NCBI RefSeq assembly: GCF_051903065.1
Contig: NZ_CP178438.1
Strand: one strand, 5' to 3'
Source: Escherichia coli
Lineage (GTDB): Bacteria > Pseudomonadota > Gammaproteobacteria > Enterobacterales > Enterobacteriaceae
DNA length: 64,000 nt
The notes under the pieces were generated by a model that saw nothing but the letters and a program-made list of their open reading frames with translations, searched no databases and had not been told where the DNA came from. Position numbers and translations under genes: made by a program. The stretch's first letter is position 1. Each line of letters starts with the position of its first letter. Below, in pieces: positions 24,579 through 25,282 of this stretch.

Positions 24579-25282
24579 ATTATAGTTGGCTACAAAATGT
24601 ATCTATTAATGATCTTTTACAGTATTTAAACTGACGTTAGCATGCTTAATTACCGTGGGTATTTCTACAAAAACCTTATATATCCTTCCCTTAAATAACA
24701 AATCATTACTAATATATATGTAATCACAAAATATATATGCAGCGTCAATGAATTATTAGTGTGTTTTTGTTTTTTGTCGTTAATTTTTAGATTGAAGTGA
24801 GTTTTTTGTGGAATATAATTCCATCAACTGTTTTTTTGTATGCTTTTACTTGCCTGATTTTAATATTGATTTTGTGAATTATATAAGCATTTCTTTATTG
24901 CTTACTTCACTATGAATATTTACTACGATTTATCTTCAAATTCTGCATGGCTTGTTACGCACGGTCTAGATCTAAGGAATTTTATATGCAAAGGAAAAAA
25001 TTATTGTCTGTTTGTGTTGCCATGGCGTTAAGTAGCCAGACATGGGCTGCGGATACTTCAATACCCGACTCAACCGAAAAAACACGTAAGTCCAGTAAGA
25101 TAACATGTCCGGCAAATATTCATTCCCTGAGCAAAGAGCAGCTAGAAAATTTATCCGCGGAGTGCAGAGAAAATAAAGATAGTGCAGTTTTACCATGGGC
25201 AGCTGCAGGTCTTGCTGCAATAGCTACGGGAATTGCTATATATACCTTAAGTGACGATGACAATCACCACCATAATAACTCC

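Follow-up and report, generated by a model that had tools for sequence, protein, structure and literature searches.

The sequence analysed here, referred to as the window, is a stretch of 64,000 nucleotides (64 kb) from an E. coli chromosome that is 99.97% identical over 41.1 kb to the genome of strain 23CRST027 (NZ_AP045789.1). The genes ydbH (21426-24065), ynbE (24062-24247) and ydbL (24255-24578) follow one another on the plus strand. The first of these is annotated as YdbH in the 99.97%-identical genome, and its last ~100-350 bp hold the left edge of a block of sequence that is strongly divergent from that of strain K-12. The ynbE gene, whose product belongs to the Pfam family Lipoprotein_19, is represented by a divergent allele, and ydbL (Pfam DUF1318) by a deeply divergent one. 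The stop of ydbL at 24578 and the ATG of ydbA at 24986 leave a gap of 407 bp (24579-24985), and the original prediction that ydbL directly abuts ydbA, with no island of fea, tynA and paa genes between them, holds to the nucleotide. A tblastn search of the whole window with all 17 Fea, TynA and Paa proteins of K-12 matched only the paralogous aldehyde dehydrogenase AldA, and tRNA genes are absent from positions 18000-34000.

The ydbA gene codes for an autotransporter of the BigA type. Its 5' part (24986-28738, plus strand; Pfam BigA_N), which encodes the passenger and is likewise a divergent allele, contains a 30-bp tandem repeat (25292-25642, plus strand) of 11.8 copies that encodes PDDGGDTPVP units near the YdbA N-terminus. 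The 3' part (29507-31627, plus strand), in which the BigA_beta and autotransporter beta-domains are recognised by Pfam, holds the right edge of the divergent block. The two parts are separated by an IS1 element of 768 bp in minus orientation (28739-29506), with terminal repeats at 28739 and 29484-29506 and a 9-bp target duplication, GCCGGGACG, on its flanks; the annotation of the near-identical genome lists an IS1A transposase. Since IS1 interrupts ydbA, this strain has a pseudogene in place of an intact autotransporter gene downstream of the spacer.

Further differences from K-12 were noted outside the locus. The Rac prophage is missing near window position ~13336, in the ttcA region, where the match with K-12 begins at the right-hand boundary of Rac (1434959); ttcA is annotated as intact in the near-identical genome. 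The 5' end of ydbD (32770-35076) is apparently disrupted, the longest open reading frame comprising 711 amino acids from a GTG at 32941 versus 768 amino acids in K-12, and the annotation of the 99.97%-identical genome records a frameshift in this gene.

The ydbL-ydbA spacer

The spacer (24579-24985) has a GC content of ~27% (26-28%), in agreement with the AT-rich stretch of about 400 bp that had been anticipated. This composition does not mark a junction: the paaY-ydbA intergenic region of K-12 likewise has only 25% GC, and AT-richness appears to be a general trait of the DNA upstream of ydbA in every allele. The 407 bp are the ydbL-ydbA intergenic region and probably the native upstream region of ydbA in this allele, with a putative promoter and 5'-UTR. 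Consensus scans detected four promoter-like sites against 3.2 expected, which is no excess over chance, and no terminator after ydbL. Small open reading frames in the spacer are of chance length only (22-39 amino acids), with none resembling K-12 ynbG, and the predicted RNA fold of the 126 nt proximal to ydbL is not more stable than those of shuffled sequences (z=0.68). No Rfam match was obtained at E<=1 in the interval 24300-25200. In complete E. coli genomes the spacer is single-copy.

In the spacer, neither sensitive blastn (word size 7) nor tblastn detected leftovers of the island genes or of the intergenic DNA of K-12. The junction is free of insertion sequences and long repeats; the IS1 element is located 3.7 kb away, within ydbA. 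A scored global alignment of the spacer with that of the CFT073/K-12 type was no better than alignments with shuffled controls (z=0.9). Short motifs seemingly shared with the sequences upstream of ydbA in K-12 and CFT073, which appeared in a first MAFFT alignment, were rejected on the basis of this scored comparison.

The near-palindrome predicted at 24712-24738 corresponds more closely to an imperfect direct repeat of 13 nt, with copies at 24710-24722 and 24729-24741 (24710-24741 in all), each of which contains ATATATAT. The two copies of ATATATAT occupy positions 24712-24719 and 24731-24738 and are the only ones in the window; weaker members of the 13-nt repeat family occur near the ydbA start. 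The pair is mildly non-random: when the spacer was resampled with a Markov-1 model, a fraction of about 0.0015 had two copies within 40 nt, and 9 of 100 whole-window shuffles reach two copies. Two copies within 20 nt, uncommon for this base composition and embedded in a repeat family, could be taken for a functional site that marks the junction and serves recombination, regulator binding or the spread of a small mobile repeat. Such a role is very improbable. The spacer occurs once per genome and the motif nowhere else in the window, which does not accord with a repeated element, and Rfam contains no counterpart. One copy differs in O157:H7, the sequence between the repeats differs in Escherichia sp. 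E1V33, and the element is not conserved in the homologous spacer of E. whittamii. Furthermore, the pair sits in the middle of the spacer, away from the breakpoints of homology. There is no evidence for a function of the ATATATAT pair.

Island-free junctions in E. coli

In K-12 MG1655 the gene order is ydbL-feaR-feaB-tynA-paaZ-paaA..K-paaX-paaY-ynbG-ydbA, and 19,185 bp separate the stop of ydbL from the start of ydbA, which bears out the order and the distance of about 20 kb given in the original prediction. The neighbourhood is alike in K-12 and in the window, with ldhA-ydbH-ynbE-ydbL on the left and ydbA-pdxI-ydbD-ynbABCD on the right, and the backbone of the window is 98-99% identical to K-12. 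At the locus itself the identity declines stepwise. In ydbH it is 98-100% up to ~23600, then 92-96%, and 79% from 24000; ynbE is 79-86% identical to its K-12 counterpart at the nucleotide level, the stretch comprising ynbE and ydbL 72-86%, and YdbL shares 72% of its amino acids with K-12 YdbL. Homology to K-12 breaks off with the stop codon of ydbL (24576) and returns only within ydbA, the 5' part of which displays patchy nucleotide similarity of 65-70%, and the 3' part 53-80% (29507-30493) followed by 92-97% from ~30500. A block of ~6.5 kb (about 23950 to 30500, IS1 not counted) that is 20-35% divergent from K-12 is set within a backbone of 98-99% identity, and the K-12 alleles of ynbE, ydbL and the 5' part of ydbA, together with the region upstream of ydbA, represent a different type, deeply divergent from that of the window.

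The genes ynbE and ydbL (window 23950-24578; L004 9700-10321), the partners of YdbH, have deeply divergent alleles within E. coli. To the right of ydbA (window 31000-45000), where pdxI, ydbD, ynbABCD and hrpA are located, divergence from K-12 is 2-5% versus about 1%, for 10-15 kb. Because of this elevated divergence, the recombinant or hitch-hiking region may reach past the obvious block.

In a set of 5426 complete E. coli genomes, 373-374 carry the spacer, at 97-100% identity. The carriers of the junction are mostly O157:H7 and O55:H7 strains, and about 80 are other strains. In O157:H7 Xuzhou21 (NC_017906.1, 1934209-1940660) the annotated order is identical, namely ydbH-ynbE-ydbL-spacer-ydbA-pdxI, without fea, tynA or paa genes. 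The window is 98.4% identical to O157:H7 at 20000-25495, 97.3% at 25430-28738 and 97.5% at 29507-36000. The spacer of O157:H7, 413-414 bp in length, differs from the 407 bp of the window by about 1% substitutions and two small indels, with a 5-bp TAATG duplication and a difference in a T-run. With only a spacer in the ~407-414 bp range between ydbL and ydbA, at an identity of at least 97%, and the same divergent ydbL and ydbA alleles throughout the block, the window carries the O157:H7-type allele. The ydbA gene of O157:H7 has no IS1, yet it is split into two open reading frames, whereas that of the window is broken by IS1; the 30-bp repeat also differs between the two in copy number and register, as seen from offset blast alignments.

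The paaA-E genes are found in 3154 and feaB-tynA in 3293 of the 5426 genomes, so that about 40% of complete E. coli genomes are island-free. This state is associated with at least three different junction types. In CFT073 and Nissle 1917, as in the window, ydbL adjoins ydbA over an AT-rich spacer, here of 374 bp, without fea, tynA or paa; however, the flanks are of the K-12 type and the spacer is not homologous to that of the window. This junction (L052 23947-24320, against K-12 1446270/1465075) lacks exactly K-12 positions 1446271-1465074 (18.8 kb, 52% GC), and can be read as a precisely empty site or as an exact deletion. In AR_0086 (L054 1859-2437) a 252-bp 3' remnant of feaR is fused to a 329-bp 3' remnant of paaY between ydbL and ydbA, which is a true internal-deletion scar on K-12-type flanks. 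The island is functionally absent in both AR_0086 and the window, but only the former keeps feaR and paaY remnants. A query built on the CFT073 junction found one place covering at least 80% of it in 1036 genomes, a number that lumps the CFT073 and AR_0086 types.

The hallmarks of an integrative mobile island are not seen at this locus: there is no tRNA gene, the K-12 annotation shows no integrase between ydbL and ydbA, and the boundary defined by K-12 and CFT073 displays a microhomology of only 1-2 bp.

Other Escherichia and the origin of the junction

The locus was compared across species using one genome per species, with E. fergusonii, E. marmotae and E. ruysiae not recovered by the scan. 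The same island-free arrangement as in the window is found in Escherichia sp. E1V33. Identity between the two is 87-89% in the ldhA-ydbH region and jumps to 99% or more (99.6%) at ~23958, the point at which identity to K-12 collapses. The stretch of at least 99% identity then runs through ynbE, ydbL, the spacer and the 5' end of ydbA up to the end of the E1V33 contig; the spacer itself is 99% identical, and YnbE 98% identical in amino acids. This profile indicates a probable recent inter-species exchange with E1V33 and places the breakpoint within the final ~100 bp of ydbH.

In E. whittamii, ydbL is followed by a spacer, a 5' remnant of ydbA and then pdxI. This spacer (404 bp, 30% GC) is co-linear with and homologous to that of the window (z=11.5, both halves being significant) and leads into a ydbA signal-peptide region of the window type. 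Because of this homology, the adjacency of ydbL and ydbA with this spacer should be old, predating the split of E. whittamii. In E. albertii, ydbL is directly followed by pdxI, and the ydbL-pdxI spacer has no homology to that of the window.

A different arrangement is found in L006, a lineage of Escherichia that carries the label E. coli SCPM-O-B-8794 and has a window-like ydbL (86%) followed by feaR-feaB-tynA-paaZ-paaA. This type is essentially absent among complete E. coli genomes, where the only matches, at 85% and split into two pieces, are in four ETEC genomes. The amino acid identity of the window YdbL is 98% to that of E1V33, 88% to E. whittamii, 86% to L006 and 80% to E. albertii. The window type is thus the closest to other Escherichia, and the K-12 type stands apart, with 73-78% identity to them.

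Outside the genus, fea-tynA(-paa) genes are located downstream of ydbL in Citrobacter spp., Pseudocitrobacter and Raoultella, and not in C. koseri or C. amalonaticus. The E. coli proteins FeaR, FeaB and TynA are 81%, 92% and 91% identical to those of Pseudocitrobacter, versus 66%, 88% and 86% for Citrobacter sp., while for YdbH the order is reversed (72% for Pseudocitrobacter versus 82% for Citrobacter). These identities suggest that the fea-tynA-paa cluster may have moved horizontally between genera at a conserved locus.

The junction of the window is regarded with considerable confidence as the ordinary intergenic region of an old island-free ynbE-ydbL-ydbA allele, the one carried by O157:H7 and O55:H7. 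The original prediction had offered an ancestral empty site or a deletion scar, neither of which fits a separate divergent ynbE-ydbL-spacer-ydbA allele; the alignment with K-12 and with paa-less genomes proposed as a check confirmed the absence of the island and revealed that the junction is shared with O157:H7. Judging from the identity profiles, the ~6.5-kb block would be exchanged as a cassette through homologous recombination, and the crossovers would presumably fall within the 3' end of ydbH on one side and the 3' part of ydbA on the other. By taking up this allele, a recipient would acquire a different autotransporter allele and lose the 18.8-kb feaRB-tynA-paa island in one step, so that no deletion event at the junction would be needed.

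As to how the allele itself came to be island-free, an ancient loss within Escherichia is somewhat favoured, because the arrangement ydbL-feaR-feaB-tynA-paaZ exists in other genera and in L006. It is conceivable, with a clearly lower probability, that the site was never occupied, the lineage of the window type having always been island-free and the fea-tynA-paa genes having entered other allele lineages later. This would be consistent with the position of the window YdbL nearest to that of other Escherichia and of the K-12 type as the outlier, with the island-free state of the locus in E1V33, E. whittamii and E. albertii alike, and with the closeness of FeaR, FeaB and TynA to Pseudocitrobacter rather than Citrobacter, opposite to that of YdbH, which suggests horizontal movement of the island. 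However, the island lies immediately after ydbL in several genera, and in L006 it does so behind a window-like ydbL; independent insertions at the same intergenic position are less parsimonious than a loss. Moreover, a precisely empty version of the K-12 site exists in the junction of the CFT073 type and not in that of the window, which also argues against the empty site as initially predicted.

A more elaborate and tentative proposal is that the island-free block is a trans-species cassette kept by selection and recently exchanged between E. coli and the divergent lineage E1V33, in which case the K-12-type ydbL of the majority would be xenologous and the window type native. The selection might be of a diversifying kind and act on the BigA/YdbA autotransporter exposed at the cell surface, or it might disfavour TynA/Paa metabolism in certain niches.

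Local deletions do occur at this locus, as in AR_0086, and the loss of paa in E. coli B was reported to be mediated by IS3 (PMC3032704). Nevertheless, a recent scar in the window, with feaR to paaY lost locally from a K-12-like ancestor and the spacer as the leftover, is effectively refuted by the comparisons. Neither the island nor K-12 intergenic DNA has left a trace in the spacer, and insertion sequences and long repeats are missing from the junction. The flanks on both sides differ from K-12 by 20-35% instead of being nearly the same (65-80% identity, extending over ~0.6 kb to the left and ~5 kb to the right), and the identical junction is found in 374 genomes and the junction also in other Escherichia species.

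Aromatic amine catabolism and strain differences

TynA and FeaB convert phenylethylamine to phenylacetate, which is degraded by PaaK, PaaABCDE, PaaG, PaaZ and PaaFHJ. The presence of these functions elsewhere in the genome was judged on 23CRST027, 99.97% identical to the window over 41.1 kb, where no feaB, tynA, paaA or paaK was found. A chimeric query composed of the junction and pieces of feaB, tynA, paaA and paaK matched a single place in each of about 45 junction-bearing genomes, among them 23CRST027 and 23CRST031, two carriers with 100% identity over the 1101-bp junction query. An alternative locus for the paa and fea genes, which the original prediction had envisaged, was thus encountered neither in 23CRST027 nor in these carriers. 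A search for paaA-E in distant mode returned the same 3154 genomes as in near mode, all at 90% identity or higher; therefore, no divergent copy of paaA-E exists in any complete E. coli genome.

With the island genes absent from both the window and 23CRST027, the strain very probably cannot catabolise phenylacetate or phenylethylamine by this route, in line with what had been predicted from the locus. This metabolic inference holds because no fea, tynA or paa genes are located elsewhere in 23CRST027. From the established pathway, no growth would be expected on phenylacetate or 2-phenylethylamine via PaaK, PaaABCDE and PaaZ together with TynA and FeaB.

The absence of paa and tynA from O157:H7 and the heterogeneity of the locus are already known and represent an ordinary strain difference. 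According to PMC4951805, the paa locus is a heterogeneous region that lies between ydbH/ynbE/ydbL and ynbC, and its carriage in phylogroup A amounts to 76-82%. All 28 of 28 O157:H7 isolates were PCR-negative for tynA, and a 33-kb region is missing in CFT073 (PMC4640556); homologues of paaA-E, paaG and paaK are lacking in O157 (PMC2653477). Carriage of the island has been linked to niche in mastitis isolates (PMC4951805) and in the distribution among pathotypes (PMC4640556).

The minor refinement added here is the allele-replacement nature of the junction and its sharing with another Escherichia species. Beyond strain characterisation this matters little, and it predicts that the strain, like O157:H7, would use neither the Paa nor the TynA/FeaB pathway. 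Since there are at least three independent junction types, one of them an allelic replacement, calls of the presence or absence of the island among E. coli strains should not be equated with single events of gain or loss.
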